A DNA stretch of 64,000 bases, from NCBI GenBank assembly GCA_965649765.1, contig OZ287755.1:2170001-2234000 (forward strand), written 5' to 3'. Below, one piece after another: positions 10,427 through 61,904 of the stretch (positions within the stretch are counted from its first letter, which is position 1; every line of letters starts with the position of its first letter). The notes under the pieces are model-generated. The model did not search any database and was not told the DNA's origin. It saw only the letters and a list, made by a program, of their open reading frames with translations. A program made the translations under genes and the position numbers. The DNA is from Bispira polyomma. Its lineage: Eukaryota.

Positions 10427-10625
10427 AACTGATTATCTATTGTATAAAGGCGCAATGCAACCATCAAAACTTGTAGATTGATGATATTGTCAGAAGAACA
10501 TATGGGTATGTGTATCACTGAATCTTCAGATGTGATGTTTTTTTTTGTTTGTGTTTCTCACCACTAATTTTATTCTACACAGATCTGTGTGTTACTCAGA
10601 CATTCACTGACTTCTAACAGAGAAG

Positions 10626-25600: not shown

Positions 25601-28600
25601 AAAACACTACTAAAACAGCAAGTAGTTGACATCAATGGAAAGGGCTTAATAATATCACTTGACTGCACCTCCAATACTGCAATTCTCTTCTTCTTTGGGT
25701 AAACTTCTCTTATATCAACCAGGGACTTGTATATCGAAGCTCTCGTTGTGCCAACGAACACACTAAGTCTTGGTTAAGGCTTTAAGGCTTAATTTTGTGT
25801 AAATAGAAGAATTAGTTTAATGTAGGTTAACTTTGTTCACAAAACCCCCCAAATGAAACGACAACTCAGACCCTGTCGTTAGGTATCAGTTAGAGCATAT
25901 GTTCACAAATAAATCAATGGAAATAATAGTAAAAACTTCTAAAAAACAAAGATATGGTAATTATGCAATCATGCCCAGAAAAATCAATATAACTTATATG
26001 TGTTGGTCTCTGTATTTGCCAATGCACTCGGACAGATTTGTCATGATATCTGTGATAGAGTTTGTTGGGAGATGTGGATGAGTACATTGTGTTTACGTAT
26101 ATTTAATAGTTCTTTATGTATGATGCACATAACTTCTTGTTATACTAGATGGATCAATAACTCATATAAGACATCTAAAAAGCTTTGTTTTTGTTAAAAA
26201 GGGCATAATGTCTACATTAATATCATAACCACATTATATGATGCCATACAACCACACCAGTTAGACCTTCGTTTAGGCTGAACTAACGAAAACCCAACCA
26301 ATACTTTCCATTTACCCACAGAGTTGTTTAGTTCTAGTCTCGTACTTTGGTCATTACTACTAAGTTAGTTGGCATTTTAACTAATGTTTCCATTTACAGG
26401 GCCCTGTTACAGTCCATTTAAAACTAATTGTTGTCCAGGCTGTACTGACATATTTTTCTATACATCGAACATTACATCCACTTCCTATTCACTGTCAAAT
26501 TTTGTTTAAATTCTATACAGCCATATGCAAAGCTGTTGTCTCTCAAAATTCCTACCTTGCAACTTGACCTTCTTTCACCAACATTAAGAGGGTAAAAATA
26601 CGTTCTGTTTTCTCTGTAAAACCAGGGTTGGTTCTAGAGCTTTCTCTGTTGCTGTCCATATGTTATGCAATACTTTCTTAGCTGGGCTTCCATTAATTCT
26701 GCGGTTTATGAAACAATCGCTTTGAACTAGTTAGTTCCTTCCATGTACACCCCACATTGTATTGTGTTGGATTGTATTGTACATTTTTAACGCACCTTAT
26801 CGATGCTAGGCATCTTCTAAGGCGCAACATCAGAATCAATCAGCCAATAGAAAAATTAAAAATATAGCCAGGTCGTAAGGATGGATGCATCAGCGACCAG
26901 GAAGAGGACTACGGCGGATAGGCAAGCCTGAAGAGATATTTTTTAACAGATATTTTTTAAGCTTTCTCCTGAAACCAGAAAGTGTTTCAAGCAGTCTAAG
27001 TTCCACTGGCAGCCTGTTCCATAACATAGGGGCCGCAACTGAGAAGGCTCTAGTTCCAACTCTCTTGGTGGGTTTTTTAGAGGAAACAGAGAGTCTTTTT
27101 CCCCTTGTAAGGCTACTGAAGGAGAGTTTAGTAGCGAGGTAGTGAAGCTGTTGAGAGACAACAATCTCGCAATTTGATTTTTTGGGTTCTAAGAGCAAGG
27201 TACGATTTGATCCAATCAAGGATAGTGCCATTAAGACCAAACCACTATTTTAGAGTGTCAAAGAGTAAGACATGGTCGATGGTATCAAAAGCTGCGGAGA
27301 GATCGAGAAGGGTGAGGGCTACAGTTTTATCACGATTCAAGGCAAGGTTAATGTCATCACTGATTGAAAGGAGGGCACTCTCCGTGGAGTGAAATTTTCT
27401 GTAGGCAGATTGGTGGCAGTTAGCTAGATTTTGTTTATTAAGGCGGTGATGAATTTTTTTAGCAACAGCTTTCTCAATGAATTTAGATACAAAGCTTAGG
27501 CTAGAGACTGGTCTATAGTTTTTAGCCCATTTTTGTCAAGGTCTGGTTTTTTCAGCAAACGGGCAACATAAGCAGTTTTGAAACAAAAGGGAAATATACC
27601 GTCTCTAAGCGAAAAATTTATGATGTTGGTGATAGGATTTATGAGAATGTCTATACATTCTGTGAGAACAGCGGCAGGGATAGGATCCAGTTCACAGGAT
27701 TTGATGGAGTTGGATTTTATGAGTTTGAGAACATCATTCTCCGAAAGTGGGTTAAAATATAGCAGATTTGAGACTTTATAGCCAGGGCATGGTGGAGAGA
27801 ACTGTAGCATTGTTGAAAAACCTTCTCAAATTTTAGTTATTTTTTCAATGAAAATTTTCCAAATTTTTTGCAAGAAATGTGAGGCAATGATTTTCAGGCA
27901 AAACTTTTTCAGCTGTGTGGTGGAGTATTTTATTTATAGAGCTCCATAACATTTTTGGGTAATTTGAATTCTCATTGATGATCGAATCATAGTGCTCTTT
28001 GTTGGCTCTGGTCATTAGTGCATTGAAGTGGTTTGTGGCGATTCTGTAGCGCTTCCTGTCAAGTGATGATTTAGTGCGCCGCCATTGCTGCTCAAGTTGA
28101 CCTTTTAGCTTTCTTGATGTCTGGGTTGGTCCATTCATGGGGGTCAGAAAGTGGGAGGGTTTTAGAAACCCAGGGAGCATGACTGTTAAGGATTGAAGAC
28201 AAAGTGTGGTTATATTGTTGACTGAGACTTGCCGCATTTTTACAAGGGTGTTTAATGAGGCGAGAAGCAAGTATGTCATCCCGAAATTTGGAAATATTAA
28301 TTTTCCTGATGTTGCGGAATTTTATTACCTTAGGTTTGTGTGACAGTGGTTTGGGCAGCACGAGATGTGCAAAAGTGGCAAGATGGTCAGATACCCCGTC
28401 AGTAAGCCATACATCCTGTATCAGCTTAGACTCTGGTCGAGCAATGATAAGGTCAAGAATGTGGTTATGGAGATGAGTCGGACAGGAAATAAACTGTTTG
28501 AATTTAAAGATATTCAAGAGGCTGTAAAAATCTTTAGTTATCGTCTTATTGATGTCGACTTTGATGTTGAAGTCACCAAGTACAATTGTTTTCAATGGGA

Positions 28601-31600: not shown

Positions 31601-33662
31601 TTTTAAAATTTGTCCTAAATTGCTGTAAGATGACAAAAAGCTTTTCTTTTCACTTTTTCCTTTTTCACTTATTAATTAACTACACCTTGATATAATGGGG
31701 AGCCATGTATAACTTGATTTGTTTATATGGACTAGATCTGTGATCAACTAGCTCAACTGGATTTAGTGTTAGTAATTATAATTGAAGTTAAGTGGGAAGC
31801 CACAACTGTATGTCGATTTATTTCATTTCAACCGACGAGTGACTTAATCATAATTAATATATCATAACTACATCTGTTTCTATTCCTTTTTATATTTGTT
31901 TATATTAAATATAGCTTCGGTGTCATGTGGCTATGCAATTATGTAGATAGTTTAAATAGACAAGAGAAAGGTTACTGAATGCTAGATATTGTTTGTATCT
32001 TTTTAATTTATAAATACAATTTAATAAATTTTCATTACCTTTTCCTGTTTTATGTTTGTTTATACAAAATATATTTGATGTACCTTCTGGCTATGTAAAT
32101 TATGTAGACAGTAATAGAAGTGTGATTTAAGTATGTGATCTCCTTCTACAAATGTATTCTTACATATATTGGTTCAAAACAAAATATATACAAATCAATT
32201 GGTTTTGTCATTTTACCATGTGTTTTAAATCATGGACGTTTTGTTTCACACAATTATTTAATAGAGTCTAAATAAGGTATAAATAACATAGGTGAAGGCG
32301 AAACAATGCCCTAAACTTAATTGCAATTCCTCAAGAAAGAATAGATATCACTGATTTAATCATCAAAATTGAGTAAGGGTGCACTTTACGATGGAGTGTC
32401 AAATATAGCGGTCATATTTAGTCCCCCTTAATCCCCCATTGTTGGGAGTGCAAAATATGGCAGCCATATAATGCTGTAAAAGATCAAACAGAGGGTGTAA
32501 AATATGACAGCGTTGTAAGATAAGGCGTTACACCGGCACCAGACTAATACAGAGCACTTGGTGCTCAATTTCAGTGGTTTTAGTGGTGTCTCTAGTATTT
32601 AGACAATATTATCTGTGTGTAAAACTATTCAGATTCAAAATATTTAGTGATCAAGTTGCAATCTTTGCTATGGTCACAGGAGCATCCGCGGTAGCAATTA
32701 CCGGTTGCTTTCAAGTTACAACAGGAAAAGACAAAAAGTTCCACTTAACAAATTTATTTTACAATTAAAATAAGAATTACAGTCAACTAAGATACTCTTA
32801 ATAGTTCATATAATAGTACAGTAATACAATAATGAAACCAATCTGACCTGACCACAGTCCTGTCCATATAATTAACAGTTAAACAAGTTTCTCCACTGTA
32901 TCCAGCAATCTGTCTTAAGATCCATTTGGTGTCCAATAACACACAATGCCTGTATCCTGTTATCTATTCGGTGTCCACGAATATGTAGCAGTTCCCCTCT
33001 CCGGTACAACCTTAACTTTATCCAGTTTACTCTAATGAGTTCACCACAAAATGTATATAATATCCAGTTTATATCGACTTGACACAGAAATAAAGGGTTT
33101 CACAATATAGCAATCCGGATAGCATACTAACTCAATAAACTTTAGTCTATGGCCAGGCTTTCAACCCTTATATATACTGGAGATATAGAAGGCCCCGGAA
33201 AGAAATGTAAACAGGTCAACACAACTCCAATAAAAACACAACACAGAACCAGCTTCTAAAAGCTTAGGGATTTTCCCCAAATCTATAAATAGATCACTTT
33301 AGCCGAGTGTAAGAAACATCAGTACCAACTAGATCAGTTCTCCACTGACATACAACAATCTCCTTTTATGTACCATCATTGAACCAATGTTAGATTTAAT
33401 TCCTGATTTCTACCATAAATTAATGGCCTCGCCTAGATAATTTACAGTTGCTGAGATCGCTCTTAAATCTATCTAAGTTAAAAATCTTGCATTGACTTGT
33501 AGTGTTTATTTATTCTTTTCAGGTGATACCATTGAGGAGATTAAACAGGATGATTTTAGACAGAACATGCTATATAGGTCTAGCACATCATTTGGTATCA
33601 AGAACAGTAAACATCACCAGCCAGCGAAAACAGAACACTTCAGAAAACTCAATGTGGACTGA
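10626..33662 (+). CDS. CRAL-TRIO domain lipid/retinoid-binding protein (alpha-tocopherol transfer protein-like/clavesin-like), paralog 2, 314 aa
   Basis: Exons joined by hand with GT-AG introns and consistent phases: 10626-10782, 23751-23910, 24190-24251, 25340-25533, 30313-30423, 30845-30965, 33523-33662 (945 nt). Motifs: AKEELNENP..ALRDWI..QPHL, LQYLRGFKFS (CRAL-TRIO N), QVNGFVFLFDFTG, SPWRSKTLHFYN, ARPSLSKKLLDR, HIPMEYLPTEY, C-terminal FRKLNVD. Confidence 0.9.
10840..11400. repeat. Degenerate ~20-bp GT-rich tandem repeat (tgtatacattggtgtatgtag) just after the exon 1 donor
   Basis: Direct reading; includes a duplicated acaagaactagaac..gaacttt block at 10926 and 11097. Confidence 0.8.
11862..11985 (+). 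mobile_element. Short LINE RT fragment
   Basis: Translates GTLQNWFEHYLKRRNQKVVIGGQSSDSNTITCRVPQ, matching the W..SYL..R.Q.V...GVPQG segment of CR1-like RTs. Confidence 0.6.
14010..15050 (-). mobile_element. 3' fragment of an L1/Tx1-clade LINE (zf-RVT region)
   Basis: ORF 14218-14535: WLQYRIIHRILGTNKLL...CSFCKSWPETIVHLFAECP..W. Adjacent frameshifted pieces continue to FTKQWSKFSRL..* near 14011. Confidence 0.85.
17477..18469 (-). CDS. Tyrosine recombinase (YR) of the Ngaro-like element, 330-codon open frame
   Basis: Catalytic-type residues R (FLRNSNL), K (KWSKT), HxxR (HCFR), H/W (HGCWKSD) and Y (AYL). The annotated start is GTG, so the true start is uncertain. Confidence 0.8.
   Translation of the reverse strand: MGTTEEVQPLICKAIERLKDNHRPRTNRQYDSQMRLYMAFILYYNVKETFGIRTVLAFFYVFFLHQKRLSYKVINNYLATIRYYAKKFAVFDTQLYDHRIVLFQRSIMLTSNFKPIPKSVFDIYQLHTISRHCQITHFPELYRTAFLFAFFCFFLRNSNLTPSSLDGFDSTRLITRSDILFESPRLHLVLKWSKTIQTRSNHNIIQLPALNNPWLCPVIAVRALFNKYPLPLHAPLLANPKNIGKCTTDSQLRLILKDILTKSQIPHTGHSFHCFRMSGASLAFNSNVKLHNIEKHGCWKSDAVWAYLESTSHAASIIPDTFVAIIPPSF
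18943..19260 (+). mobile_element. 5'-truncated 3' tail of the L2/CR1-like LINE family, inserted in the Ngaro RNase H region
   Basis: KRVGSRAFSVAAPMLWNSLP..LKTYLFRLAYPP*, then a 3'UTR and a tacaa-repeat tail. Closely matches the reverse complement of 26757-27095. Confidence 0.9.
26605..26690 (+). mobile_element. Short fragment of the same L2-like tail
   Basis: ttttctctgtaaaaccagggttggttctagagctttctctgttgctgtccatatgttatgcaata resembles 18950-19030. Confidence 0.55.
26757..30084 (-). mobile_element. L2/CR1-clade LINE with 2A-like/APE/RT ORF, internally deleted and frameshifted
   Basis: GDVQINPGP, FNARSIRNK, VSETW, GGGV, LGDFN, LDLII, SDH, SCELDPIP, HSTESALL, LDLSAAFDTIDH. The RT core is deleted at ~27140. 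3' tail of tacaa repeats at 26757-26785. The 5' boundary (~30084) is approximate. Confidence 0.88.
29623..29872. repeat. Three ~80-95-bp tandem copies in the LINE 5' region
   Basis: Unit gtgctaaatatgggtccctaaatatgcagtattaacagtattgccc..ttccactcccgccaaatggaatggacgata. Confidence 0.85.
31218..32536. mobile_element. Non-autonomous TIR DNA transposon with subterminal 21-bp repeats
   Basis: ctggtgtaatgcc (31218) versus ggcgttacaccgg (ends 32536). Tandem ttgccatatgttacacccc repeats at 31283-31480 are mirrored by gggtgtaaaatatg motifs at 32390-32520. Confidence 0.7.
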
Positions 33663-38934: not shown

Positions 38935-39101
38935 ATATGACGCAATCAATTACCCAGATGTAGTGGTGGAAGAAACCACTGCGGAGGACACTGGTTAAAC
39001 CACCGAGCTATTGTAAGTACAAACTTTCCCACATGAAGGAAAAAACACGGATTCAAACCTACATTGGAGTCAGTGACTGTGAAGCAGACATATCTAACCA
39101 C
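38935..39101 (-). mobile_element. tRNA-derived SINE, diverged
   Basis: Reverse complement reads agtggttaga..ggtttgaatcc (A/B-box-like), then atgtgggaaagtttg..cggtggttt core shared with the other SINE copies. Confidence 0.6.
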
Positions 39102-39314
39102 TATATATAATGGTTTATGTAGTGTTGTGTCGTGTGTGGCCATGTCTTCCCCCGTTGTGTCATGTCGTGTAGTCGGTGGTTTGTAATGCCCTTAACTCTT
39201 TTAAATAAGTACAATTCACACAGTACCAAATACCAGACTTAGATCTTATGTACACCCTTGTATTGATGACCACTCAATGAACTCCCATCTCACCATATAC
39301 CCCTAACAGAGAAG

Positions 39315-42300
39315 ATGTCAGAAGACTCAGACTATGTATGTACACTGGACCAAGCCACCATCAAGAAGGCTAAAGAAGAGCTGAATGAGAATCCTCAGGA
39401 CAGATTGGCGGCAGTTCAGGCTCTGAGAGACTGGGTCAGAGAACAGCCACATCTTAAGTTTCCTAGTCTGGGTAGGTGAACTCTTACTAAACTAAGGTTT
39501 AGCCAGCATTTGTTTTAAAGGGTGGGGGGAGGTCAGCGATCCTCTCCTAGAGAAGGTATTGTCAACATAAATGTTAAGATGTGCTTGTTAAACTCCCATT
39601 TGAAGTAGCTCTATAAATGTTTTAAAAGGGGGGTTGATCCTGATAAACCTCCCCCCTCCCCTTCACTCCCAACACCCTGGATCCACCTATGAATCTAATT
39701 AGAAAGCCTGTTGTAATGCAATACAAACCTTGTCATTGTGAATTGTCATATAGACATTGATAGTGCCTTATGGTGAAATGAAATGCTCCTCAATACTTCA
39801 ATACTTCTATCGGTACAATCAGTCATCAAACTTTCGCACAACCCTGCTGTAAAAGTTCATAAAGCTGGTCAAGAGGTCCCATTAGTCATGGGTTTGAATC
39901 TCGGTCACGCCATCTATATTGGAAAGTTTGCAGTGGACTTAACTAAAGCTGGTGGTTTGCAGAACAAAAATCATGAGCAACTACCCTGTTTTGTTTCTCA
40001 TGCAACACCAGTAAACTGCTTACTGTGATATCAAACACATTGTAAACCCCAAAGTAGATGAATAGGTTTGGACCATTGCAATATTACTTAATATGGTAAA
40101 AGTAATGTCAATCCTAAATCATCTTTTAAACTCACACCACATTTTGTGGTATTCAAATATGTCTGGGCTTTAAAAACTATAATATTAATGCTGAATTTGA
40201 ATTTGGATATTTAATGTCCACTCTAGTACCTTTTAGTAGGTTATATTGGGACGGGTAATTGGAAATGCTGAAGGAAACACTGCATACAGTTGGTCAAGGT
40301 TCTGCAGAGAAACCAGCGGCCCACAGTAAGGAACTACCACCTTTCCCACATAAGCATTGACGGGATTCGAAATCACGCCGCCCAGAGGTGAGAGACCAGT
40401 GATTGTGAAGCGCAATGCTTGCTAACCACTAGGCCACCACAGCCCCATATTAATGCGGAAAGCCAGTTTTAACAATGCTGGGACCCTGTTAGCTCTATCA
40501 TTTTGCATTTTGATGCGTTTAATTTTTTTTATACTACCCATCTGCCTGTGTTGTGAGATTCAAAACACTAATTTTGATTATTAATCCCCCGACCCACCAA
40601 TCCAGACACTGTCACAATGCTGCAATATCTGCGTGGAGCCAAGTTCAGCCAGCTTCGGGCCAGGGAACTATTAGAGAAACACCTGTTACTGAGGAACTCG
40701 CTGAAATGGTTCAAAAACATTGACACACATGACAGTGAATTGCTACGGGTATTAAACTTTGGGTATGTAGAAAAATATGTTATAGTTTGTGTATGTCGTA
40801 CAAAACATTGTTATAGTTTGTGTATGTGGTACAACACAGTGTTATAGTTTGTGTATGTGGTACAAAACAGTGTTTATAGTTTGTGTATGTGGTACAAAAT
40901 AGTGTTATAGTTTGTTTATGTGGTACAACACAGTGTTATAGTTTGTGTATGTGGTACAACACAGTGTTATAGTTTGTGTATGTGGTACAAAACAGTGTTA
41001 CACTTTGTGTATGGTGTACAAAACAGTGTTATAGTTTGTGTATGTGGTACAAAACAGTGTTACACTTTGTGTGTGGTGTACAAAATAGTTTTATAGTTTG
41101 TGTATGTGGTACAGAATAGTGTTATAGTTTGTGTATGTGGTACAAAACAGTGTTATAGTTTGGGTATGTGGTACAACACAGTGTTATAGTTGTGTGTGGT
41201 GTACAAAATAGTGTTATAGTTTGTGTATGTGGTACAAAACAGTGTTATAGTTTGGGTGTGTGGTATAAAACAGTGTTATAGTTTGTGTGTGTGGTATAAA
41301 ACAGTGTTATAGTTTGTGTATGTGGTACAAAACAGTGTTATAGTTTGTGTGTGGTGTACAAAATAGTTTTATAGTTTGTGTATGTGGTACAAAATAGTGT
41401 TATAGTTTGTGTATGTGGTATAAAACAGTGTTATAGTTTGGGTATGTGGTACAACACAGTGTTATAGTTGTGTGTGGTGTACAAAATAGTGTTATAGTTT
41501 GTGTATGTGGTACAAAACAGTGTTATAGTTTGGGTATGTGGTACAAAATAGTGTTATAGTTTGTGTATGTGGTACAAAACAGTGTTATAGTTTGGGTATG
41601 TGGTACAAAACAGTGTTATAGTTTGTGTATGTGGTACAAAACAGTGTTATAGTTTGTGTATGTGGTACAAAACAGTGTTATAGTTTGTGTATGTGGTACA
41701 GAATAGTGTTATAGTTTGTGTATGTGGTACAACACAGTGTTATAGTTTGTGTATGTGGTACAACACGGTGTTATAGTTTGTGTATGTGGTACAAAACAGT
41801 GTTTATAGTTTGTGTATGGTATCAAATAGTGTTACAGTTTTTAGGGTTTTTTTAAAGTTTATTATTTATTGTTGAAAGCCTCTTTTTCAGACACCCAGGA
41901 CTTCACAAAAACTGCACTTCACAGGATGTCTAATCTATACAAAAATATGAAAAATAACCATTGTAACAGTAATATAAATGTGTAGCCTTTTATTATAGTG
42001 ACGAAAAATCAACCATTTTTTTTTGTAGAAAGAAAGAATACCAAAAAGTTGTATATTCATTGTACGTGCATTTAACCTGTTTACATATATATAAAATTTT
42101 CTACTACAATATTTACTTATTTAAATATTCTGCATTTTGCACTTATCCAAGCAAATACTGCCATTTACGATGAATGTACAAACCTTGATTTGCATTCTGC
42201 GTTATAGTTTTCTCGAACTTGTAAGTATAACACATCATTTGTTTAAAATACTATATATGTAAAATACTTTCTTTTGGATTTGGTTACAAAGACATGTATA

Positions 42301-45300
42301 TAATAATTGGCAAGGTGAAATATGTGATTCATTATTCTGTCATTATGCCCTTTGTACCCGAGCAGGATTGATTTGGTTGTCAAACAATGATCGATTGATC
42401 AATAAGTCTGTTTTTCTGACCTTAAAGTATTAAGTGGAAAAGTGTTTAGCCAATGAGCTGGGTTAATGCAAATCAATTCCAAGGGACAAATAGAACTACA
42501 TTTTATGTAAATGGAGCCAATAGTGGTTAATCATTCCATTGAACTTCTACAGTGGTATTCATAAAAGGGTTAACAAAAGACTTGGATCCAGTATACTTTG
42601 TGCTAGATTTAGGACAGTGTCCAGACCAAGCCCTTTTTGTGAACACAGTCCCTAGGACAGTATTCACTAACAGACAAAGCCAAGTCTTTGGCTTAACTCT
42701 AGCACAAAAGTATACTCGACATATGCCTAAGATGTGGCTAAGTCTGTTGGTGATTATGGGCCCTGTATATTAGAGACATATAATTGTTGTTCAAGCTGAA
42801 ATTTGTACATATATAGTATATGTTTTTGGTAGGACTTTTAGATTTGTTTCCCGTTTTCTTTGTGTTTTTAGTATGGTGATACCCCTACCCAAGAGAACTC
42901 CCAGAGGTGAAACGGTGGTGCTAGAGAGACCTCGTAAGTCATGTGGGGCTTTATAGTGTAAACAGGGAGGTTTATAGTGTAAACAGGGAGCTATGTAGGG
43001 TAAACAGGGAGGTGTATGGTGTAAACAGGCAGGTGTATAGTGTAAACATGGAGGTGTATAGTGTAAACATGGAGGTTGATTGTGTAAACAGGGAGGTGTA
43101 TTGTGTAAACAGGGAGGTTTATATTGTAAACATGGAGCTTTATAGTGTAAACAGGAAGGTGTATAGTGTAAACTGGCAGGTTAAAAGTTTAACAAGTTTT
43201 AGATTAAAAAAAATTAAAGACTTAATTTTTATCAATCAGCTTATAAATGTTCACATAATGTTTTAAGTAGCATGTGGTTTCCTAATTGTGAAGCAATGTC
43301 AAACTACTGTAATTCATGAAATGAATGTGATCCCAGCTACATATGAATCAGCCTCAATCTGTCTATCCTTCTGTCAGGCTGTTTGGACGGTAAGAAGTTT
43401 TCCTGGAGCACCTTCTTCCAGAGCTTTATTGTGCTGTTTCAGTACCTCACTGACAATGAGATGAGCCAGGTTAATGGCTTCATCTTCCTCATGGACTTCT
43501 CGGGGGTAGGAGCCAAGCTGTTAACTAGGATGATGAACAAGGAAATGGCCGACTTTGAGTCCAAATGGGCGGTTAGTATGGTAGACTATTACTCCCCCCC
43601 ATTAGTAATAGTTCCCATTTTTCGATGATATATCATATAAGTGCTGTGTCAAATTTGTTAACTTTGCTTATGTTAACCACTATGTCGCTGGCTGCTACAA
43701 AAGCCATGAAATGGCCACACAAAGCTCAGTCTAGGTCTGTCCTTCATTCCGGCCATACCACAATGTTTGTCCAGGTGTATATCTTGGTGTCTACTGTAGC
43801 AACTCTATTATCTGAACTTATGTTGTCTAAATATTCAATTTTAGTGAACTTTGTTTCACATTCACAAATTTCCTTTTTCCTATTGTTTTATACAGAAAAC
43901 GTCTCCGAACAAAATGATTTAAGATGTACTTTATACGTCAACATTGACTTAATGAGTACTCAATATGTGCTCCATTTGTACTCCATATCTGTTGCACTTA
44001 TCTTACATATGTGCTTCATATGTTATACGTATGTACTCAATATGTACTTGGAGAAGTCAATATGTACTTAGTGTGTACTTAGTGTGTACTTAATGTGTAC
44101 GGTGGTACAATGTTATTTTGACGTATTAAACAAACTAATTAAAAATAGTTACTCATATTCATACTTAAATAGTTAAGATGTATTTATGATGCAACAAAAA
44201 ACACAACAAGTACAATTAAATCAGCTTTCTCAACATATTTATACAAACATTTTACCATTAGTAATTCTGTTATTAATAAATAAGCGGCAATATAGCTATA
44301 TATGTCAAAATAATATGTGCATTGAAATAACATCATACTGCCATACTTTAGGTGCACTCAACATGTACTTAATGCCTCTTTTTCTTGTATTGTCCAGTTT
44401 CCCATTGTGTATTTTTGTTATACTTCAGAAAAGTTCCCCCGGCCGCTTCAAGGGTTTCCACATATATAACAGTGGGGTGTTGTTTGAGATGATGATCGCC
44501 TTCGCTAAACCTATACTACCAAAGAAGTGGATAGAAAGGGTGAGCTCGACACAATTATCTGTGAACACTTCTTTAGGTTAGAGTTTGGGTTAGAGTTTGG
44601 GTTAGAGTTTAGGTTAGAGTTTGGGTTAGAGTTTGGGTTAGAGTTTGGGTTAGAGTTTAGGTTAGAGTTTGGGTTAGAGTTTGGGTTAGAGTTAAGGTGT
44701 GGGTGTATGAGTGTATTGAATCCATGTATCTGTATGGCCATCTGTATGGATGTATCTGTATGGCTCTCTGTATGGCTCTCTATGGCTGTATGTGTCACTC
44801 GCTCTATCTACGGATAAAGACCCATGACAACTTGGAGACTGTGTACAAACACATCCCTGTGGACTGTATGTATTGATGTATTACTATATGTATGTCTGTG
44901 TATGGTTGTGTGTATGGTTGTATGTATGGATGTATATGTCACATGTCACTCTCTCTATCTACAGATGAAAACCCATGACAACTTGGAGACTGTGTACAAA
45001 CACATCCCTATGGACTGCCTTCCTGAGGAGTATCTTCCTGATGACTATACAGGACCTAACGTGGGCTCTACACAGCAAATCCTGGGTCGGTAGCACTAAA
45101 CTGTGTCTTCAAGATGTTGAGGATATCATATCCAGCCATTGGCTAGTCAAGGCTTTACTAATTACAGATGGGTTTTGTTGATTTGATAGCCTTCTATATT
45201 AAATATTTACCATCTTCATTACCCAAATATGTTTGGTATCATTTGCATGCCAAAAAACATATTAACATAATTTTTTAGATTAAAATACAGCTCCAATTTT

Positions 45301-46138
45301 TGTACAGTGGAAACTCCATTATATAAACTAACTAATATGTTAAGTGACTGACTGACAATCTTAGCCACTCATGTCCACTCTACCAAATTCATGTGTTAGA
45401 ATTTAGGTTCCATGCAGAAATGACTCCAGCTTTCCACTTGTGAGGTTCTACTGTAGTATACTGATGTTCTGATGGAATGTATTATACCACCCTGATCTAC
45501 TGACTCTAGTGTCTGCCAGATTAAGTTAGTCATGATAACATAGTTTATTACATAGCAAGTGCTTCTTGATACAATGAAGCAGACATTTCTCTGGCTCCAC
45601 TATAAGTACAAATCTATCCCACAATGCCCCCTGGGTCTGAGGATACCGGGGCCTAGTGGTTAGCAAGCATTGCACTTCACAATCACTGGTCTCTCACCTC
45701 TGGGATCGGCTAGCGTGGGTTCAATGCCTATGTGGGAAAGGTGGTAGTTCCTTACTGGCCGCTGGTTTCAGTGCAGAATCTTGATCAACTGTATGCAGTG
45801 TTTCCTCCAGCGTTTCGAACTACCCGTCCCAATATTACCTAAACAGGTACTAGAGTGGATGTTAAATATCCCAATTCAAATTCAAAACTCCAAGGGGACC
45901 AATCACTAATCTATCACACAATACCACCTGCCCTGAATATACCAACCACCAACAAATCTATCCACAATGCTGCTGTCTCCATTGTTCTTCAGATGACTAC
46001 ATCCAATCTGTTCAGCAGAGTGACTTCAGGAAGCAGCTCCAGTACACAACCAGGCCCGAGTTCAGGGTCGATGAGTCCAAGCGTCCAAGTGCAGACGGCG
46101 GAGTGACACAGCATTTCAGGAAACTCAATGTGGACTAG
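39315..46138 (+). CDS. CRAL-TRIO domain lipid/retinoid-binding protein (alpha-tocopherol transfer protein-like/clavesin-like), paralog 3, 315 aa
   Basis: Exons 39315-39471, 40606-40762, 42872-42933, 43378-43571, 44429-44539, 44965-45085, 45993-46138 (948 nt), all GT-AG. Intron phases are identical to paralog 2 and exon sizes nearly so. Motifs LQYLRGAKFS, QVNGFIFLMDFSG, PGRFKGFHIYN, KPILPKKWIER, HIPMDCLPEEY, QHFRKLNVD*. Confidence 0.92.
39880..40052 (+). mobile_element. tRNA-derived SINE fragment
   Basis: gggtttgaatctc B-box-like motif, ggaaagtttg..ggtggttt core, tgtaaaccccaaa tail. Confidence 0.45.
40192..40446 (-). mobile_element. tRNA-derived SINE (full length) in intron 1 of paralog 3
   Basis: Reverse complement: ggggctgtggTGGCCTAGTGG (A box)..gatTTCGAATCCC (B box)..atgtgggaaaggtggtagttcc..attaaatatccaaattcaaattca tail. 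Confidence 0.88.
40750..41840. repeat. 31-bp minisatellite, ~34 copies (tgttatagtttgtgtatgtggtacaaaacag), starting at the exon 2 donor
   Basis: Direct reading; no unique spacers. Confidence 0.95.
42551..42765. mobile_element. Two abutting, oppositely oriented copies of the ~105-bp tattcac MITE
   Basis: tatactttgtgctagattta (42592) in the first copy and its complement tctagcacaaaagtata (42698) in the second. The same core is at 38290-38310. Confidence 0.7.
42945..43182. repeat. 21-bp minisatellite, ~11 copies (tatagtgtaaacagggaggtg), just after the exon 3 donor
   Basis: Direct reading. Confidence 0.95.
44572..44696. repeat. 12-bp tandem repeat GGGTTAGAGTTT x~10
   Basis: Direct reading; TTAGGG-like dimer variant in intron 5 of paralog 3. 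Confidence 0.95.
44793..44866 (+). pseudogene. Dead partial duplicate of exon 6 (acceptor plus first ~53 nt)
   Basis: ctctatctacGGataaagacccatgacaacttggagactgtgtacaaacacatccctgtggactg versus the real ctctatctacAGatgaaaacccatgac... 151 bp downstream. Confidence 0.85.
45648..45886 (+). mobile_element. tRNA-derived SINE in intron 6 of paralog 3, same family as 40192-40446, opposite orientation
   Basis: ggcctagtggttagcaagcattgcacttcacaatcactggtctctcacctctggg...gttaaatatcccaattcaaattcaaa. Confidence 0.88.
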
Positions 46139-46227
46139 TGGTGTTTGTGAAGTGTAGAACAGAAGTCAACAGTACTTTTTGACATTCCACTTTTAATTAT
46201 GGCTTTCAACTTATCATAAACCTGGAG

Positions 46228-46446
46228 GGTTATTCACTGAAACTCTTAATTTAGTCTTAAGCTTAACGCTCGGAGACTCGGAGAATTTTGGCCAAAAATA
46301 GATTTTGGTCCTTAGTCCCAGTGACAGTAAGACCAGATGTTTGCTCAGTGTTAACTTTGATATTAATAGTAACACTAACAGTAGGCAATCTTATGTTACA
46401 CATCAATATTACACTGAAGACCAAGTCAAGTTCAGTTAATATGAAC
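46228..46446. mobile_element. Possible MITE immediately 3' of the paralog 3 stop codon
   Basis: ggttattcactgaaact.. versus agttcagttaatatgaac imperfect inverted ends, similar in style to the tattcac MITEs. Confidence 0.35.
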
Positions 46447-47188
46447 ATTTTGTAAAGTCAAAAGTCATTGGAAAAACACAATCAACTTTTAATAACACAT
46501 CTATATCATTAGAGCTTATAGTCTAGGTATTTTTTCACACGATCACCATACTATGTCTCTACGAGTCCTTTTTTGGAGTGCAATGTTCTGTGTTCACAGT
46601 TCCTTCAATTTCCTGTGACTATAGTCAAAATGTCAGATATCATTTGAAATTATTAATATTTATGTACAGAAAAGTATTGGTATAATATTTATTCCTTGGA
46701 CTAAAATTCAAAAATCAAGTCCTTTAATAGGTACAGTTCTGTAATTAACTATGACAAAGACAATTGTTGGAAAAGTTTTACACAGACTAAAATTTTCAAA
46801 AATTTACTTTTCACACTACGACACTTCAGTGTAAAAGGTATAGACTTTTTATACAGTAAAGAATAGACTTGTAAACTGTGAACTAAAACACATCAGGTGA
46901 CGAGCATATGATCTCCTTTTAAAATATAACACTACTTCACAGGTCACATGAACTTTGTTCATCTAAAAAACCACTTAGTAACTCAGGAACCAATGTAACA
47001 TGTCCAACAGATATTTGTGTATATTTTACCACAGTGGAGCATTATAACAGTAATACTGTAGTCATTCTTGTATGAAAATGGTCCTAGTAAGACAAGTGCA
47101 GCTTGGATTTTGGGACAATACAATACAAAATCACAAACTATAAGATAAGTTTCATTTCTTTCATCGACATACAATTATGATGATGCAA

Positions 47189-48999: not shown

Positions 49000-49456
49000 T
49001 TTGCCGTTTGGGGATCTATACTAATGTCTCTCCATACCTCATAAATTACATTAGTTTTCTATGTATTATCTTATTCTGTCTAAAATGCATGTATCCACTT
49101 TCAAGCTGTTATCTCTCAACAACCCTCTTTCTTTGCTGCTCATCTTTTCTTCAGTAATCTTAAAAGTTGCAAGAGGCTTTGAGTTTTCTCTGTTAAACCT
49201 ACCAAGAGGGCTGGATTTAGAGCTTTCTCTATTGCTGCCCCTGTGTTATGCAATAGTCTCCCTGTTAAGCTTAGATCACCAGAAACACTTTCTGGTTTTT
49301 AAGAAAAAGCTTAAAACATATCTCTTGAATCTCCACATACTTCCTTAGGACCTTGCTATGTCTTTTGGAATTCTCAATTGGTAACTGATTCTGCTGTTGC
49401 ACTTTTAAAAACGTGTTGCATCAATAAGTTGTGTTAAAAATCCATAATACAATATA
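49000..49456 (+). mobile_element. L2-like 3' fragment, same family as 18943-19260
   Basis: accaagagggctggatttagagctttctctattgctgcccct..cactttctggttttt..cttaaaacatatctc, ending ataatacaata. Confidence 0.75.
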
Positions 49457-54600: not shown

Positions 54601-55060
54601 CTAACCCTTTTACCCCCGTGTTACGTTTGTTGTTTACCTTTAACCCAGTAACACATCTAAAAACCAAAAAGCAGATTCCTTGTTTTTGTCCGAAATTGTA
54701 AAGGTTCAACTGATGTGAACATACCGTATGCGCCCAAAGTGTGGCCCAATTTTTGGTATATTAACTGTTGGAATTCACTGGAAGTATCTGAAGACAGAGG
54801 AGTATGACACCATTTTTATCCACCACCACACCCCCACCCCCCACAAGGTTATTTAGCCCTGACCACTAGGGATATATAGCACCAGATGACACCTCCATTT
54901 TAAGTATTGACATCCTAAACACTATGAGAAAGCCGCTGTGGCCTAATCTAATCTAATCAAACTTTCATAATAAGTTGTTAAAATCATTGCAATGCAAATT
55001 CATGATCCTAGAGGTCACATGGGCAAGAAAGATTTCTATAGAGGGTACCCCGGGATGAAG

Positions 55061-55880
55061 TGTTACAAATGGGGACATTGTGGTGTGTTGAAGAAAAACC
55101 GGTCTAGTTAGTACTAATGGTTTTACACTCTGCTGGAGTGATCTATTTATAGATTTGGGGAAACCCCTAAGCTTCTAGAAACCGGTTCTATTTTATTTCT
55201 GAAGGTTATTAAAGTTGTATTCATATGTATATCTCATCTCTGGAATGTCCTAGCGATTGCTTACACATTCTAGCAACCTTCTCTAGCAGTGGTATATATA
55301 AGGGTTGACAGCCTGGCCACAGAAGAGATTTAATTGAGCTGAGGTGCTATATGAATGCTATAGGAACTACTATACTGTTTGTTATATACATTTTGTGGTG
55401 AACTCATTGGAGTGAACTAGATAAAAGTTGTGGATCTACCAGAGATTGGATTTACTGCATATTGGATATTGTTTGCATCCTGGACTGGATAGCTTAGTTG
55501 TGCAGATTCTCTGGATATATACATTTTGTGTGCGTGGACGCTGAACAGATAACAGGATACAGGCATTGTGTGGACATTAAGTGGATCTCAAGACAGATTG
55601 CTGGATACAGTGGACAAACTGGTTTAATTGTTATTTAAGTGGACAGGACTGTGGTCAGGTCAGATTGATTTCATTATTATATTATTGTGTGAGCTATTAA
55701 GGGTATCTCAGTTGACTGTAATTCTGTAATTCTGTAATTTTGTAATTTTATAATTCTGTAATTCTGTAGTTGTTATTTTATTTGTTAAATAAATTTGTTA
55801 AGTGAAACTTTTTGTCTTTTCCTGTTACAACCTCAAAGCAACCGGTAATTGCTACCGCGCTGGCTCCCGTCACCGTAACA
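55061..55880 (+). repeat. 5' LTR
   Basis: TGTTACA...GTAACA termini; TATA-like tatatataag at ~55293; ctgtaatt octamer tandem at 55716-55768; AATAAA at 55788-55793. Confidence 0.97.
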
Positions 55881-55887
55881 GGAAAAT

Positions 55888-55905
55888 TGGGGGCTCGTCC
55901 GGGAT
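55888..55905 (+). promoter_or_regulatory. Primer-binding site complementary to the tRNA-Pro 3' end
   Basis: TGGGGGCTCGTCCGGGAT, the 18-nt PBS-Pro sequence known from murine leukaemia virus; 7 nt downstream of the LTR end. Confidence 0.93.
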
Positions 55906-55990
55906 CTAACCATTTGATTTAACTATTTTATAGCTTTTTGAAAAATCATTTATTTTGTTGAAAAATATATTACAGTCAACAGTGCTCAAA

Positions 55991-58900
55991 ATGGCTAGTG
56001 CTAAAGAGTTTGTACAGTCACCATCTATTGAGGTTCTAGAAACTTTTAAAAAAGATATGTTAATGCAGATAACACAGGAATTACAGTTAGATGTGAAAAA
56101 GTCAACACGTAAACATGAACTTAAAAGGCTTATTGTTGAACAGTTAGTTGATGAAGACCTTTTGCATGATAGTTGTTTAGAAGTGTATGAACCTCTGCCA
56201 ATGGAACCTTCTGGGCAATTTGAGATCAGGCGATTAGAAATTGAAAGAGAGCTAAAACTTAAAGAGCTTGAAGCTCAGCAACAACAGAGAAAAGAAGAGC
56301 TTGAGCTTGAGGCTCAAAGGAGAAAAGAAGAGCTTGAGGCTCAAAGGCGAAAAGAAGAGCTTGAGCTTGAGGCTCAAAGGCGAAAAGAAGAGCTCGAAGC
56401 TCAAAAATTTGAAAAGGAGCTTGAACTTAAACATGAAAGGAAAATGAAGGCTTTGGAACTCAATGCTCGCCGAATTGCCCATGAAGAGTCCATGGCAACC
56501 AAATTTGATTTGGGTAAAAATATGCGACTGGTACCACCTTTCAGCGAGTCCGAAGTTGATAAATATTTTCAACACTTTGAACGAGTGGCTCAAAATTTGA
56601 AATGGCCCACAAACCAATGGCCTTTATTGCTGCAAAGTGTTTTCAAAGGCAAAGCCCAAGAGGCATATACAGCTTTGCCAATTTCTGAATGTAGAGATTA
56701 TGACTGTGTGAAAAATGCTATCTTGAAAGCATATGAGTTGGTACCAGAAGCATATCGTCAAAAATTCAGAAATTATCGTAAGCAAGAAAATCAAACTTAT
56801 GTTGAATTTGCCCATGAAAAAGAAGTGTACTTTGACAGATGGTGTAATTCTAGAGAAGTTGGTACAGACTTTGAAAAGCTTAGGCAAGTCATTTTAATTG
56901 AGGAGTTCAAAAGGGGTGTTCGTGATGACATTAGAACCTATCTGGATGAACAGAAAGTAGAAAATTTGCAAAAAGCAGCAGCTTATGCTGATGAGTATGC
57001 GCTGACTCACAAGTCCACTTTTAACAAGAGTAAATCCTCTGGTCCCACAAAGAAGTTTTATCCTGAAATAGGAAAGAAATTCAAAAATGTAGCTCCAGAA
57101 AAGAGTTCCGATAAGTTTCAAACAACAAATCAGACAATGAGTAAGGATAGGAAACCTAGGTCCTTTGCTCCTGTGTGCCATTACTGTAAAAAACCTGGGC
57201 ATGTTATGTCTGACTGTTGGCTCCTTAAGAAAAGGAGAGAAAAGGAGGCAACACCTAATGCTTTTATTTCTAGCAAATCTAATTGGCGTTCAAATCCCAA
57301 TAGAACAGAATCTAGTATTGGTTTAGACAAGTCTGAGATTAGGGATGAGTTCAAACCTTTTGTGTCTGAGGGTTTTGTGTCCTTAGAAAGTAGTTCCAGT
57401 CAAGTTCCCATTAGGATACTAAGAGACACTGGTGCTACTCAGTCACTACTTTTAGAAGGTGTATTGCCATTGAGTGTAAGCACTTCTACTGGTGAGAGTA
57501 TTATTGCTCAAGGTATTGAAGGAGGTTGTGTAAACATTCCCTTACATAAGGTCAACTTAGTATCAGACTTAGTTACTGGTTCTGTTGTGGTGGGTACCAG
57601 GCCCACTTTACCCATTAAAGGGGTGTCTTTGCTGTTGGGAAATGATTTGGCAGGTGGCAAGGTGGTTGCTGATCCTAAGGTTACTTCTAAGCCGATCACT
57701 TTGGTTAGCACTGAGAAATTAGAAGAGGTTATTCCTGGTATTTTTCCCTCCTGTGCTGTGACTCGAGCTATGGCTAAAAAAGCCCAAGAAGAACCAAAAG
57801 ATTGTAAACAATCTGCAGATGTCTTAGTTGATTTATCAGATACATTCTTAAACAACTGTGACCATGATGTGCAAAATCATAGTGAGATTGACCCTAAAGG
57901 TAGGAAAGATTCTGGGAAACAAGACCAATTTGATGATCCAGATGTATCACTCTCAAAATCAAAATTGATTGTAGAGCAGGAAAATGACCCTGAATTAGCC
58001 GCTCTATTCAAATTGGTGTTACCACCAGTAGAGCTAGATAAGGTCCCAGTAGGCTATTATATCAGAAATGGTGTGCTTATGCGAAAGTGGAGGCCGCCAA
58101 GTGTCCCTACCTCTGAGAACTGGTCAATACTTCATCAGATTGTATTACCAAAAGTGTACCAAAATGATGTATTGAGGTTAGCTCATGAGTCTCCAATGGG
58201 TGGCCATTTAGGCATCAACAAAACCTATGGCAAAATATCCAAGCATTTCTACTGGCCTCAAACCCGGCGCTGTGTGGCAGAATTTTGTAAAACTTGTCAC
58301 ATTTGTCAAGTTGTGGGAAAACCAAACCAAAAAATTCCTGTAGCTCCTCTAAAACCCATTCCAGCATTTGAGGAACCATTCAGCAAAGTGATAATGGATT
58401 GTGTAGGCCCCTTACCAAAGACTAAATCCAGAAACCAATATCTCCTAACCATTATGTGTGCCTCAACCAGATTCCCTGAAGCCATACCTTTGACCAACAT
58501 AACAGCCCCAAAAATCTCAAAAGCTTTAGTCAATTTCTTTACTTTAGTTGGCTTACCAAAGGAGATGCAGTCAGATCAAGGGTCAAATTTCATGTCAGGA
58601 TTATTTCAGCAAGTTGTGTTTCAGCTAGGTGCCAAACAGATCAAATCTAGTGCTTATCACCCAGAATCACAAGGTGCCCTTGAAAGGTTCCATTCCACTT
58701 TAAAAAATATGATTAGGACATATTGCTTAGACAATGAGAAAGATTGGGATGAAGGCATCAACTTATTATTGTTTGCAGTTAGGGAATCAGTGCAAGAGTC
58801 TTTAGGCTTTAGTCCCTTTGAGTTGGTGTTTGGTCATTCAGTCCGTGGTCCTCTCAAATTGTTGAAAGAAAATTGGTTATCCGAGAACTCTGAGAGCCTA

Positions 58901-60754
58901 AACCTGTTAGATTATGTTTCAAAGTTTAGGAGTAGGCTGAAAAAGGCTTGTGAGCTAGCGCAACAAAATCTGAAACATTCTCAGTCAAAAATGAAAAGGC
59001 TTTATGATAGAAAGTCACAAAACCGTGTTTTTAAACCGGGAGACAAGGTTTTAGTGCTATTACCTGTCCAGGGGAACATGTTACAGGCCAGATATCATGG
59101 GCCTTACAAAGTGTTAAAAAGAGTAGGTGATCTGGATTATGTCATTGAAACCCCGGACAGAAGGAAGTCAACCCAACTGTGTCATGTAAATATGGTAAAA
59201 CCATACTTTGAAAGGGGTGTGACAAAGCCTGTCATGGCTACTGACTGTAATGTGGAAAATGACAACAATCAGGAGCATGAAGCATGGGATGACACTCATG
59301 ATGTTGAAGTTAAATGTAAAATCAGGTTGAGTAATTCAGAAATTCTTGCTGATTTGGAAACCAAACTGAATCATGTACCTCCAGATAAGAGAATCTCACT
59401 TAGTGAGTTACTCTTGAAGTATAAGTCAGTATTTCCTGATGCCCCTAACAGGACTAATGTACTCATGCATGATGTTGATGTTGGCAATGCCATTCCGGTC
59501 AAACAGCACCCATATCGGGTAAACCCGATTAAACTTGGAAAATTAAGACAAGAAGTGCAATACATGTTGGACAAAGATATAATTGAACCAAGTCAAAGTA
59601 GTTGGGCATCTCCTTGTGTTTTGGTCCCGAAGCCTGATGGTTCTATCAGATATTGCACAGACTATAGAAAGGTTAATGTTTTGAGTAAAACCGATTCATT
59701 TCCTATCCCAAGAATGGAAGATTGTATTGATCGGATTGGTAAAGCCAAATATATCACAAAATGTGACTTATTGAAAGGTTACTGGTGTGTACCTCTTACT
59801 GAACGGGCAAAAGAAATATCAGCATTTGTAACTCCCGATGGTCTGTATCAGTACAAGGTAATGCCATTTGGCATGAAAAATTCCCAAGCTACATTTCAGA
59901 GACTAATGAATATATGTTTAAGAAACTTAGAAGGGGTTGAAGTGTATGTGGATGATATTGTCATCTTTAGTGATACTTGGGAAGAACATTTGAAAAGACT
60001 TGAACAAGTTCTGTTTCAGCTCAAACAAGCCAACCTTACTGTGAATCTATCAAAAAGTGACTTTGTAAAAGCAAAGGTTGTTTACTTAGGGCATGTAGTT
60101 GGTCATGGAGTTGTGACACCAATTAAAGCAAAAGTTGAAAGTATCATTGACTATCCCATTCCTAGAAATAAGAAAAGTTTAATGAGGTTTCTGGGAATGT
60201 CAGGTTATTATAGAAAATTTTGTAAAAATTTCTCAGATGTCACTGCTCCACTGACTGAGCTCTTAAAAAAAAACGTAAAATATCACTGGTCTGAAGCATG
60301 TCAAAAAGCATTTGACAAAGTAAAGAGTGTTCTCTGTTCGGAGCCTGTATTAGCTGCTCCAGACTTCAGTAGACCATTTCGGTTAGCTGTGGATGCCAGT
60401 GATGTTGGAGCAGGTGCAGTTTTACTGCAGACTGATGATGAAGATATTGAACATCCCATTTGTTATTTTTCAAAAAAATTTAACGTACATCAAAAAAATT
60501 ACTCTACAATCGAAAAGGAATGTTTAGCCCTCATTTTAGCCATTAAACACTTTGATATATATATATCTTCATCATCAAAACCAACTATCGTGTACACAGA
60601 TCACAACCCTTTAGTATTCTTGCACAAAATGAAAAACAAAAACAGACGTCTATTGAATTGGAGTTTGGTTTTGCAAGAATACAGTTTACAAATAGAGCAT
60701 GTTAAAGGAAAGGATAACATTTGTGCTGATGCTCTATCAAGAAGTTGTAGTTAA
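55991..60754 (+). CDS. Gag-Pol polyprotein, 1587 aa from the first ATG (capsid/SCAN-like, CCHC, protease, integrase, RT, RNase H)
   Basis: CHYCKKPGHVMSDC knuckle; LRDTGA protease; HESPMGGH..CHIC, MDCVG, SDQG, LERFH and GPY integrase motifs; then DYRKVN, MPFG, YVDD (RT); VDAS, EKECLA, TDH, ADALSR (RNase H). No stops or frameshifts. Confidence 0.96.
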   Translation: MASAKEFVQSPSIEVLETFKKDMLMQITQELQLDVKKSTRKHELKRLIVEQLVDEDLLHDSCLEVYEPLPMEPSGQFEIRRLEIERELKLKELEAQQQQRKEELELEAQRRKEELEAQRRKEELELEAQRRKEELEAQKFEKELELKHERKMKALELNARRIAHEESMATKFDLGKNMRLVPPFSESEVDKYFQHFERVAQNLKWPTNQWPLLLQSVFKGKAQEAYTALPISECRDYDCVKNAILKAYELVPEAYRQKFRNYRKQENQTYVEFAHEKEVYFDRWCNSREVGTDFEKLRQVILIEEFKRGVRDDIRTYLDEQKVENLQKAAAYADEYALTHKSTFNKSKSSGPTKKFYPEIGKKFKNVAPEKSSDKFQTTNQTMSKDRKPRSFAPVCHYCKKPGHVMSDCWLLKKRREKEATPNAFISSKSNWRSNPNRTESSIGLDKSEIRDEFKPFVSEGFVSLESSSSQVPIRILRDTGATQSLLLEGVLPLSVSTSTGESIIAQGIEGGCVNIPLHKVNLVSDLVTGSVVVGTRPTLPIKGVSLLLGNDLAGGKVVADPKVTSKPITLVSTEKLEEVIPGIFPSCAVTRAMAKKAQEEPKDCKQSADVLVDLSDTFLNNCDHDVQNHSEIDPKGRKDSGKQDQFDDPDVSLSKSKLIVEQENDPELAALFKLVLPPVELDKVPVGYYIRNGVLMRKWRPPSVPTSENWSILHQIVLPKVYQNDVLRLAHESPMGGHLGINKTYGKISKHFYWPQTRRCVAEFCKTCHICQVVGKPNQKIPVAPLKPIPAFEEPFSKVIMDCVGPLPKTKSRNQYLLTIMCASTRFPEAIPLTNITAPKISKALVNFFTLVGLPKEMQSDQGSNFMSGLFQQVVFQLGAKQIKSSAYHPESQGALERFHSTLKNMIRTYCLDNEKDWDEGINLLLFAVRESVQESLGFSPFELVFGHSVRGPLKLLKENWLSENSESLNLLDYVSKFRSRLKKACELAQQNLKHSQSKMKRLYDRKSQNRVFKPGDKVLVLLPVQGNMLQARYHGPYKVLKRVGDLDYVIETPDRRKSTQLCHVNMVKPYFERGVTKPVMATDCNVENDNNQEHEAWDDTHDVEVKCKIRLSNSEILADLETKLNHVPPDKRISLSELLLKYKSVFPDAPNRTNVLMHDVDVGNAIPVKQHPYRVNPIKLGKLRQEVQYMLDKDIIEPSQSSWASPCVLVPKPDGSIRYCTDYRKVNVLSKTDSFPIPRMEDCIDRIGKAKYITKCDLLKGYWCVPLTERAKEISAFVTPDGLYQYKVMPFGMKNSQATFQRLMNICLRNLEGVEVYVDDIVIFSDTWEEHLKRLEQVLFQLKQANLTVNLSKSDFVKAKVVYLGHVVGHGVVTPIKAKVESIIDYPIPRNKKSLMRFLGMSGYYRKFCKNFSDVTAPLTELLKKNVKYHWSEACQKAFDKVKSVLCSEPVLAAPDFSRPFRLAVDASDVGAGAVLLQTDDEDIEHPICYFSKKFNVHQKNYSTIEKECLALILAIKHFDIYISSSSKPTIVYTDHNPLVFLHKMKNKNRRLLNWSLVLQEYSLQIEHVKGKDNICADALSRSCS

Positions 60755-60936
60755 AGGTTATTTTGTATGTTAGTAACTGAAAAGTTGTAACTTGTAAAAC
60801 TTAGATGTTTACTTATGGATAATACTTGTGTAACTTAAAATATAATGTTTCATGGATCAATATGTACACTGTATGTTCACTTATGTTTTGTGTAATATGA
60901 AATTTTGTAACCCCTTGGCTTCCAAAATTTTTCTTT

Positions 60937-60947
60937 AAGGGGGGAGG
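60937..60947 (+). promoter_or_regulatory. Polypurine tract
   Basis: AAGGGGGGAGG directly abutting the TG of the 3' LTR. Confidence 0.9.
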
Positions 60948-61767: not shown

Positions 61768-61904
61768 TGAAGTAAGGTGTGTTAAGGTTGCTTCTGAAAC
61801 TAGAGAGGGTTGGTGCGGCAACACAGCAAATCATAGGATCCAATCTGTTTACTGGTTCTGGTCTTGGAGACTGACATTTGGGGTTTCCTGGTATTAAACC
61901 TGCT

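Follow-up and report, generated by a model that had tools for sequence, protein, structure and literature searches.

The window analysed here, a 64,000-nucleotide (nt) stretch of the Bispira polyomma genome (contig OZ287755.1, forward-strand positions 2,170,001 to 2,234,000), contains a CRAL-TRIO gene, termed gene B, whose introns 1 and 6 carry two short interspersed nuclear elements (SINEs) of one family in opposite orientation. A first-pass annotation had predicted from this pair a circular RNA (circRNA) of exons 2–6 with an endless reading frame, allowing that the arrangement might be coincidental. Gene B lies on the forward strand and comprises coding exon 1 (39315–39471, 157 nt, beginning with the ATG), exon 2 (40606–40762, 157 nt, with a Met codon at 40617), exon 3 (42872–42933, 62 nt), exon 4 (43378–43571, 194 nt), exon 5 (44429–44539, 111 nt), exon 6 (44965–45085, 121 nt, with a phase-1 donor) and the coding part of exon 7 up to the stop codon (45993–46138, 146 nt). 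Exons 1–6 are delimited by AG/GT sites, and the intron phases after exons 1–6 are 1, 2, 1, 0, 0 and 1. An AG resembling an acceptor, 5 bases upstream of the ATG, suggests that an upstream non-coding exon may exist. Another candidate for exon 3, at 42553, was dropped for want of a donor.

The open reading frame (ORF) is intact and specifies a full-length protein of 315 amino acids (aa). In an exon-level search, the CRAL_TRIO matches (PF00650) of exon 4 (partial, E=0.0028) and exon 5 (weak) fall under the curated cut-off; exon 4 also matches CRALBP in PDB. The full-length homolog P0001 is 55.6 % identical to gene B over the whole length (aligned over 2–315, E=2e-138), passes PF00650 above the curated cut-off (3e-20) and has CRALBP (4e-26) and alpha-TTP (6e-15) as its nearest solved structures. 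Exons 2–6 of gene B differ from those of its paralogs at proportions of 0.25–0.39 for nonsynonymous sites (pN) and 0.71–0.84 for synonymous sites (pS), the latter being saturated. The predicted working product of gene B is an ordinary 315-aa lipid-binding protein. Human TTPA presumably has internal exons similar in size to the 194- and 111-nt exons of gene B.

The upstream SINE (40192–40446, reverse strand) is a full-length, tRNA-derived copy in intron 1, antisense to gene B and flanked by a 10-bp target-site duplication (left, 40182–40191; right, 40447–40456). Its A box is intact, its B box is off consensus, it differs from the family majority by 5.2 % and it lies 159 nt from the exon 2 acceptor. 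The downstream SINE (45640–45886, forward strand) lies in intron 6 in sense orientation, has small deletions and differs from the family majority by 6.1 %; its match begins 564–565 nt past the exon 6 donor, leaving 108 nt between its end and the exon 7 acceptor. The two copies form an inverted match (40192–40435 versus 45884–45650) with 85.8 % identity over 246 columns, so the first-pass description of inverted SINEs of ~240 bp, the first ~160 nt upstream of exon 2 and the second ~560 nt downstream of exon 6, was accurate. As the upstream copy has many relatives elsewhere in the genome at 96–98 % identity, while the best other genomic copies of the downstream SINE reach 89–91 %, the pair appears to derive from two separate insertions rather than from a local inversion. 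Near-identical direct repeats of 19–20 nt (45609–45628 and 45953–45971), ~340 nt apart, surround the downstream SINE and are unlike a simple target-site duplication.

Both copies belong to an abundant family. Across the genome searched (1.035 Gb, 75 contigs), a single 24-mer from the SINE has 17,654 exact matches (8,785 + 8,869), against none for the reversed control. This 24-mer is carried by 13 of 32 unselected copies of at least 150 nt, giving a copy number of at least 17,654 by exact motif and an estimated ~43,000 after correction for copies lacking it; 20 random 10-kb stretches held six copies of at least 150 nt. Among 23 unselected near-full copies, 18 have an A box and 14 a B box. With its tRNA-like head bearing A and B boxes, short-repeat tail, target-site duplications and dispersed high copy number, the family is a tRNA-derived SINE. 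ARAGORN found no tRNA in the 64-kb window, and Rfam returned no match in 39000–47000. We take the body and tail to be MetaSINE-like, a likeness that does not establish the superfamily.

The predicted exon 2–6 circle and the paralog family

Exons 2–6 total 157+62+194+111+121 = 645 nt. Once circularised they would read through in the coding frame without a stop; the ATG at 40617 belongs to this frame, and the codon at the back-splice junction encodes Asp. These features, including the exon sizes and the phase-1 flanks, were recovered from the splice sites as the first-pass annotation had given them, and its in-frame exon 1–7 product is also arithmetically correct (157 nt + 146 nt = 303 nt, i.e. 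100 aa and a stop). A block of coding exons between introns of equal phase forms a circle of a multiple of three nucleotides in the host frame. Exons 2–6 form such a stop-free circle because both flanking introns are of phase 1 in all the family members examined, and four of the 15 internal exon blocks of gene B (exons 2–3, 2–6, 4–6 and 5) are stop-free circles.

The genome contains 21 matches to exon 1, and gene B is the last gene of a tandem cluster on C8. We modelled 15 genes among these matches. The six others comprise two on C2 (one of them mapped only in part), an exon 1 duplicate at C8:2.1416 Mb, a copy at C9:12.38 Mb that is truncated, and a pair of fragments at C9:34.177 Mb. One boundary in the modelled set, the exon 4 acceptor of the C9:20.5 Mb gene, is insecure. 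Splice positions are identical in all 15 genes, one of which has an additional phase-0 intron in exon 4, and all 15 yield the stop-free exon 2–6 circle (645–654 nt). As every paralog shares the circle although synonymous sites in exons 2–6 of gene B have reached saturation, the frame is far older than the SINEs, whose divergence from the family majority is 5.2 and 6.1 %. This open frame is an ancestral property of intron phase and not a signal. A length divisible by three, the absence of a stop and an in-frame start, which characterise infinite-ORF circRNAs, are found in gene B and equally in 15/15 paralogs, and are not diagnostic. The additional intron, in the C9:56.86 Mb paralog, is 2,551 nt long, cuts exon 4 into 92 and 102 nt and is likely an intron gain.

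These findings bear on the proposal that the circle undergoes rolling-circle translation into functional concatenated CRAL-TRIO cores, to which we assign very little probability. In its favour, the frame is open with 11 Met codons, and by homology the circle would hold the whole PF00650 region (P0001, 108–252). Structures have been solved for alpha-TTP chains of 228–231 aa (5mue, 5mug and 6zpd) whose alignment begins only near the exon 2 start, so a unit lacking the exon 1 equivalent could fold, and infinite-ORF circles have been reported for circEGFR, circTau and circNFIB (PMC11724312). However, an open frame that is present in 15/15 paralogs and in 4/15 exon blocks needs no selection, and translation of this kind would need the circle to be plentiful, initiation to proceed without a cap and the concatemer to have some use; surveys of ribosome profiling and proteomics found no circRNA translation (10.1101/328104). 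It would be similarly far-fetched to suppose that two recent SINEs switched on a back-splice in gene B only, converting a latent phase-1/phase-1 block shared by the whole family into translated tandem lipid-binding cores without the N-terminal helices. If this were true, transposons would have made a new protein architecture that is seen here as it arises, in an invertebrate-type genome, and real rolling-circle translation would provide a rare endogenous example of a concatemer protein created by a transposon.

Gene B is the only one of the 15 genes with a SINE pair across introns 1 and 6 (0/14 other paralogs); one of the 14 has a 57-nt, 59-bit match between these introns. Altogether, the paralog introns (176 kb) hold 15 SINE copies (8 sense, 7 antisense), and inverted SINE pairs occur in three genes around different exon blocks, namely gene B (introns 1/6), C9:22.4 Mb (introns 1/4 and 4/6) and C9:56.8 Mb (introns 3/5). 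One of these four pairs is in phase, in line with the expected share of about one third. When repeats of any kind are counted, 7/15 genes have an inverted inter-intron match of at least 50 bits, and the gene immediately upstream of gene B carries an intron 1/4 match from another repeat that scores higher than the gene B pair (360 versus 280 bits) around a block that is out of frame. The neighbour's two copies (18943–19259 and 26767–27094) are 83.7 % identical over 332 columns and form a predicted duplex (-468 kcal/mol) stabler than that of the SINEs; a third copy of this repeat family lies near 49107–49329.

We shuffled the 15 SINE copies 200,000 times over the introns of the 15 genes. At least three genes acquired inverted inter-intron pairs in 24 % of shuffles, an in-phase bracket arose in 59 % and a pair across introns 1 and 6 arose in any of the 15 genes in 34 %. 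Among the first 100 SINE copies listed, five inverted pairs lay within 6 kb (3.8 expected), which scales to ~880 genome-wide, and 5–42 in-frame brackets as close as that of gene B are expected per genome, assuming 20,000 genes with 15 intron pairs each in place of an annotation. A SINE bracket of this kind is uncommon per gene and expected per genome, and the arrangement at gene B is probably one of tens like it in this genome.

The two gene B copies also lack any sign of co-adaptation in a comparison with the 23 unselected copies. They are 89.3 % identical without gaps, and 18 of the 23 match the downstream copy at least as well as the upstream copy does; they share one derived change, and their 25 mismatches include seven that form G-U pairs and seven that form the mirror A-C pairs. 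Conserved circRNAs are expected to have pairing elements that are kept across homologous genes or co-adapted, and here we found the pair in none of the 14 paralogs and no co-adaptation.

Splicing potential and likely products

Gene B has two features expected of a locus with repeat-driven circularisation: reverse-complementary repeats in both flanking introns and a predicted stable duplex with a perfect run of 30 nt. The exon 2 acceptor (40586–40605) is unusual, having one T at positions -20 to -5 against 6–11 in the 14 other exon 2 acceptors. It ranks second weakest of 91 paralog acceptors in a matrix trained on these 91 family sites only, and the boundary ranked weakest is not securely placed. 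The exon 1 donor, on the other hand, is strong (rank 78 of 91 from the weakest). A weak acceptor would favour skipping over back-splicing onto that same acceptor, and the stable predicted duplex together with the weak exon 2 acceptor makes low-level skipping or back-splicing plausible. The back-splicing proposed by the first-pass annotation thus rests on an established mechanism and is physically possible given the predicted duplex; its treatment of the SINE pair and the frame as a joint signal does not hold, as the two are independent and ordinary.

We consider it highly probable that gene B carries a chance SINE pair around ordinary exons, with by-product splicing at most. Two high-copy tRNA-derived SINEs would have entered introns 1 and 6 in opposite orientation as independent and presumably neutral insertions, and their transcripts are predicted to pair and may do so in the pre-mRNA in vivo. 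A small share of transcripts might then be looped out, giving exon 1–7 skipping, which the weak exon 2 acceptor would favour, and/or an exon 2–6 circle. Such products would be unselected by-products and not a system for making a concatenated protein. This agrees with accounts of circRNAs as by-products of young, species-specific transposable elements across species (PMC8516420) and of back-splicing as mostly error (PMC8365531). The first-pass annotation's own fallback, coincidence, is thus the better-supported reading, given tens of thousands of SINE copies, the absence of co-adaptation and a frame found in 15/15 paralogs.

Several observations weigh on the other side. The predicted SINE duplex (-388 kcal/mol, 222 cross pairs) is far stabler than self-folding (-63 and -73 kcal/mol), and its longest perfect run, 30 nt, reaches the minimum of the 30–40 nt repeats that sufficed for circularisation in human minigenes (PMC4201285). 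The exceptionally weak exon 2 acceptor could raise non-linear splicing above a trace. The introns of gene B add up to less sequence than those of any other of the 15 genes (5,876 nt) yet hold two SINE copies, and gene B obtains an intron 1/6 pair itself in 0.19 % of shuffles. An in-phase pair within 600 nt on both sides arises in any of the 15 genes in 6.7 % of shuffles, and a pair across introns 1 and 6 at distances of at most 200 and 600 nt arises in 0.6 %, these distance cut-offs having been set after the locus was seen. Tests for co-adaptation are weak in power for young insertions. Finally, SINE junctions occur in contigs of both DNA samples (upstream copy, both ends; downstream copy, right end in 3/3 runs and left end in 2/3), and the presence of both SINEs in both samples gives no sign of a rare polymorphism. 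Among the contig joints listed (three runs covering the introns, in two sub-stretches), none skips either SINE; there are 112 and 21 further joints beyond those listed, and run X3 lacks cover at 45558–45604, a gap that proves nothing.

The weak acceptor is also an argument for a reading in which pairing of the SINEs causes exons 2–6 to be looped out and skipped to a substantial extent, producing an in-frame exon 1–7 mRNA (100 aa, without the lipid pocket) with a lariat-derived circle as a side product, and thereby down-regulating gene B. The strong exon 1 donor and the position of the downstream SINE, ending 108 nt before the exon 7 acceptor, fit this reading, and in humans, weak-acceptor exons flanked by inverted Alus are those in which skipping tracks duplex stability (PMC13019027). 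However, the relationship in humans is a loose one (R2 = 0.06) observed for single exons, whereas gene B would need to skip five exons over 4.5 kb; the acceptor ranking comes from only 91 sites, and heavy skipping would be costly given an intact and conserved full-length ORF. We regard substantial skipping as unlikely.

Still less likely, in our judgement, is that the pair yields an abundant, regulated, non-coding exon 2–6 circRNA in gene B only. The duplex is predicted to be stable and lies near both splice sites, and short repeats suffice in minigenes; against this, repeats are commonplace while only specific exons circularise (PMC4201285), the back-splice would have to use the very weak exon 2 acceptor, and we found neither conservation of the pair in the 14 paralogs nor co-adaptation. 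It is possible, if somewhat doubtful, that some exon 6-to-2 back-splice reads would turn up in deep RNase R sequencing; abundant reads would be a considerable surprise. Our literature search found no work on mollusc circRNAs with reverse-complementary flanking introns and, among the papers listed, none on SINE-driven circles in molluscs. Although the arrangement as found matters little in itself, the family offers a natural test of SINE-driven back-splicing, with 15 paralogs sharing the same in-frame block, one of which is bracketed by SINEs and two of which have brackets around other blocks.

Apparent exon 1 homogenisation and other features

Coding exon 1 of gene B is 91–94 % identical in DNA sequence to that of C8 paralogs; for five of them the figures are 92–94 % in exon 1 against 47–72 % in exons 2–7. 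Within the window, the homogenised region spans 39304–39478 versus 10615–10789. Synonymous differences in exon 1 versus exons 2–6 number 6/32 vs 108/135 and 4/32 vs 103/135 between gene B and two neighbours, 2/32 vs 108/137 for the C9:56.82/56.87 Mb pair and 4/31 vs 103/137 for the C9:15.44/15.45 Mb pair (Fisher p 1e-10 to 1e-14), with no such contrast in two control pairs (p 0.06 and 1.0). Across the three clusters, homogenised pairs have an exon 1 pS of 0.06–0.19 and an exon 2–6 pS of 0.74–0.80. Similarity ends within a few bases of the exon 1 edges in gene B and the C9:15.4 Mb pair, and reaches ~390 nt upstream of exon 1 in the C9:56.8 Mb pair, for which a sister relationship in the exon 2–6 tree is rejected (approximately unbiased test, p = 0.012).

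Recurrent, exon-restricted gene conversion in three clusters, maintaining uniform N-terminal helices alongside a diverging lipid pocket, is the likely explanation of these contrasts. A point against it comes from the exon 1 tree, in which resolution is poor and gene B still falls outside the same group of seven genes (support 35/85), so the case for gene B rests on branch lengths. Exon-restricted gene conversion is a known kind of process (e.g. PMC7042247 and PMC5112662); our literature search found nothing on gene conversion among CRAL-TRIO paralog exons. For the study of gene-family evolution, this apparent homogenisation of exon 1 alone may be of greater interest than the circle.

Two of the paralog clusters (C8:2121000-2147000 and C9:12376000-12381300) also contain inverted, stop-containing exon 3/4 fragments and a stray exon 2, together with two identical tandem copies of exon 1 separated by 1.9 kb and an inverted copy of exons 1–2 that is truncated. 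Within gene B, a tandem repeat of ~31-bp units is associated with intron 2 (40749–41840) and a telomere-like hexamer array with intron 5 (44572–44698). A local duplication in intron 5 (44727–45017) includes a partial copy of exon 6, namely its first 57 nt (44814–44870, forward strand); with its acceptor AG altered, this copy is likely not spliced. Further downstream, a long terminal repeat (LTR) retrotransposon (55057–61771) has 828-bp terminal repeats that are 99.6 % identical, marking it as young, and one 1606-aa open frame with a SCAN domain and an integrase placed before the reverse transcriptase and RNase H. This domain order, together with SCAN, resembles that of Gmr1-like Gypsy elements. 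A diverged LTR-like piece related to it lies at 32666–33363.

Comparison with known systems

Gene B resembles the CRALBP (RLBP1)/alpha-TTP branch in its PF00650 domain and, via P0001, in its similarity to CRALBP and alpha-TTP, and differs in being part of a lineage-specific expansion (21 exon 1 matches). Its SINEs share with MetaSINEs (PMC4824008) and bivalve HCD SINEs (PMC11481361) a length of ~250 nt, a tRNA-like head containing an A and a B box, a tail of short repeats, target-site duplications, a copy number in the tens of thousands and a frequent presence in introns. MetaSINEs are defined by a 66-bp Meta domain directly after the tRNA head (PMC4824008), and bivalve SINEs of intronic and of palindromic type have been described (PMC11481361).

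The exonic circRNAs driven by repeats, such as those of ZKSCAN1, HIPK3 and EPHB4 (PMC4201285; see also PMC8516420), share with gene B opposite SINEs of one family in the flanking introns, a few hundred bases from the splice sites and, in gene B by prediction, capable of pairing as a long duplex; gene B differs in being non-mammalian and known from DNA alone, in its weak acceptor and in a pair that is not kept in paralogs. Loop-out skipping by inverted Alus (PMC13019027) is likewise reminiscent of gene B, with an inverted pair, a weak acceptor within the loop and a possible in-frame skip, but involves one exon rather than five, and gene B is again characterised only at the DNA level. Finally, the infinite-ORF circRNAs circEGFR, circTau 12-10 and circNFIB (PMC11724312) have, like the putative exon 2–6 circle, a length that is a multiple of three and no stop in the host frame; those are detected RNAs, whereas the open frame of gene B is only a consequence of the equal intron phase found throughout its family.

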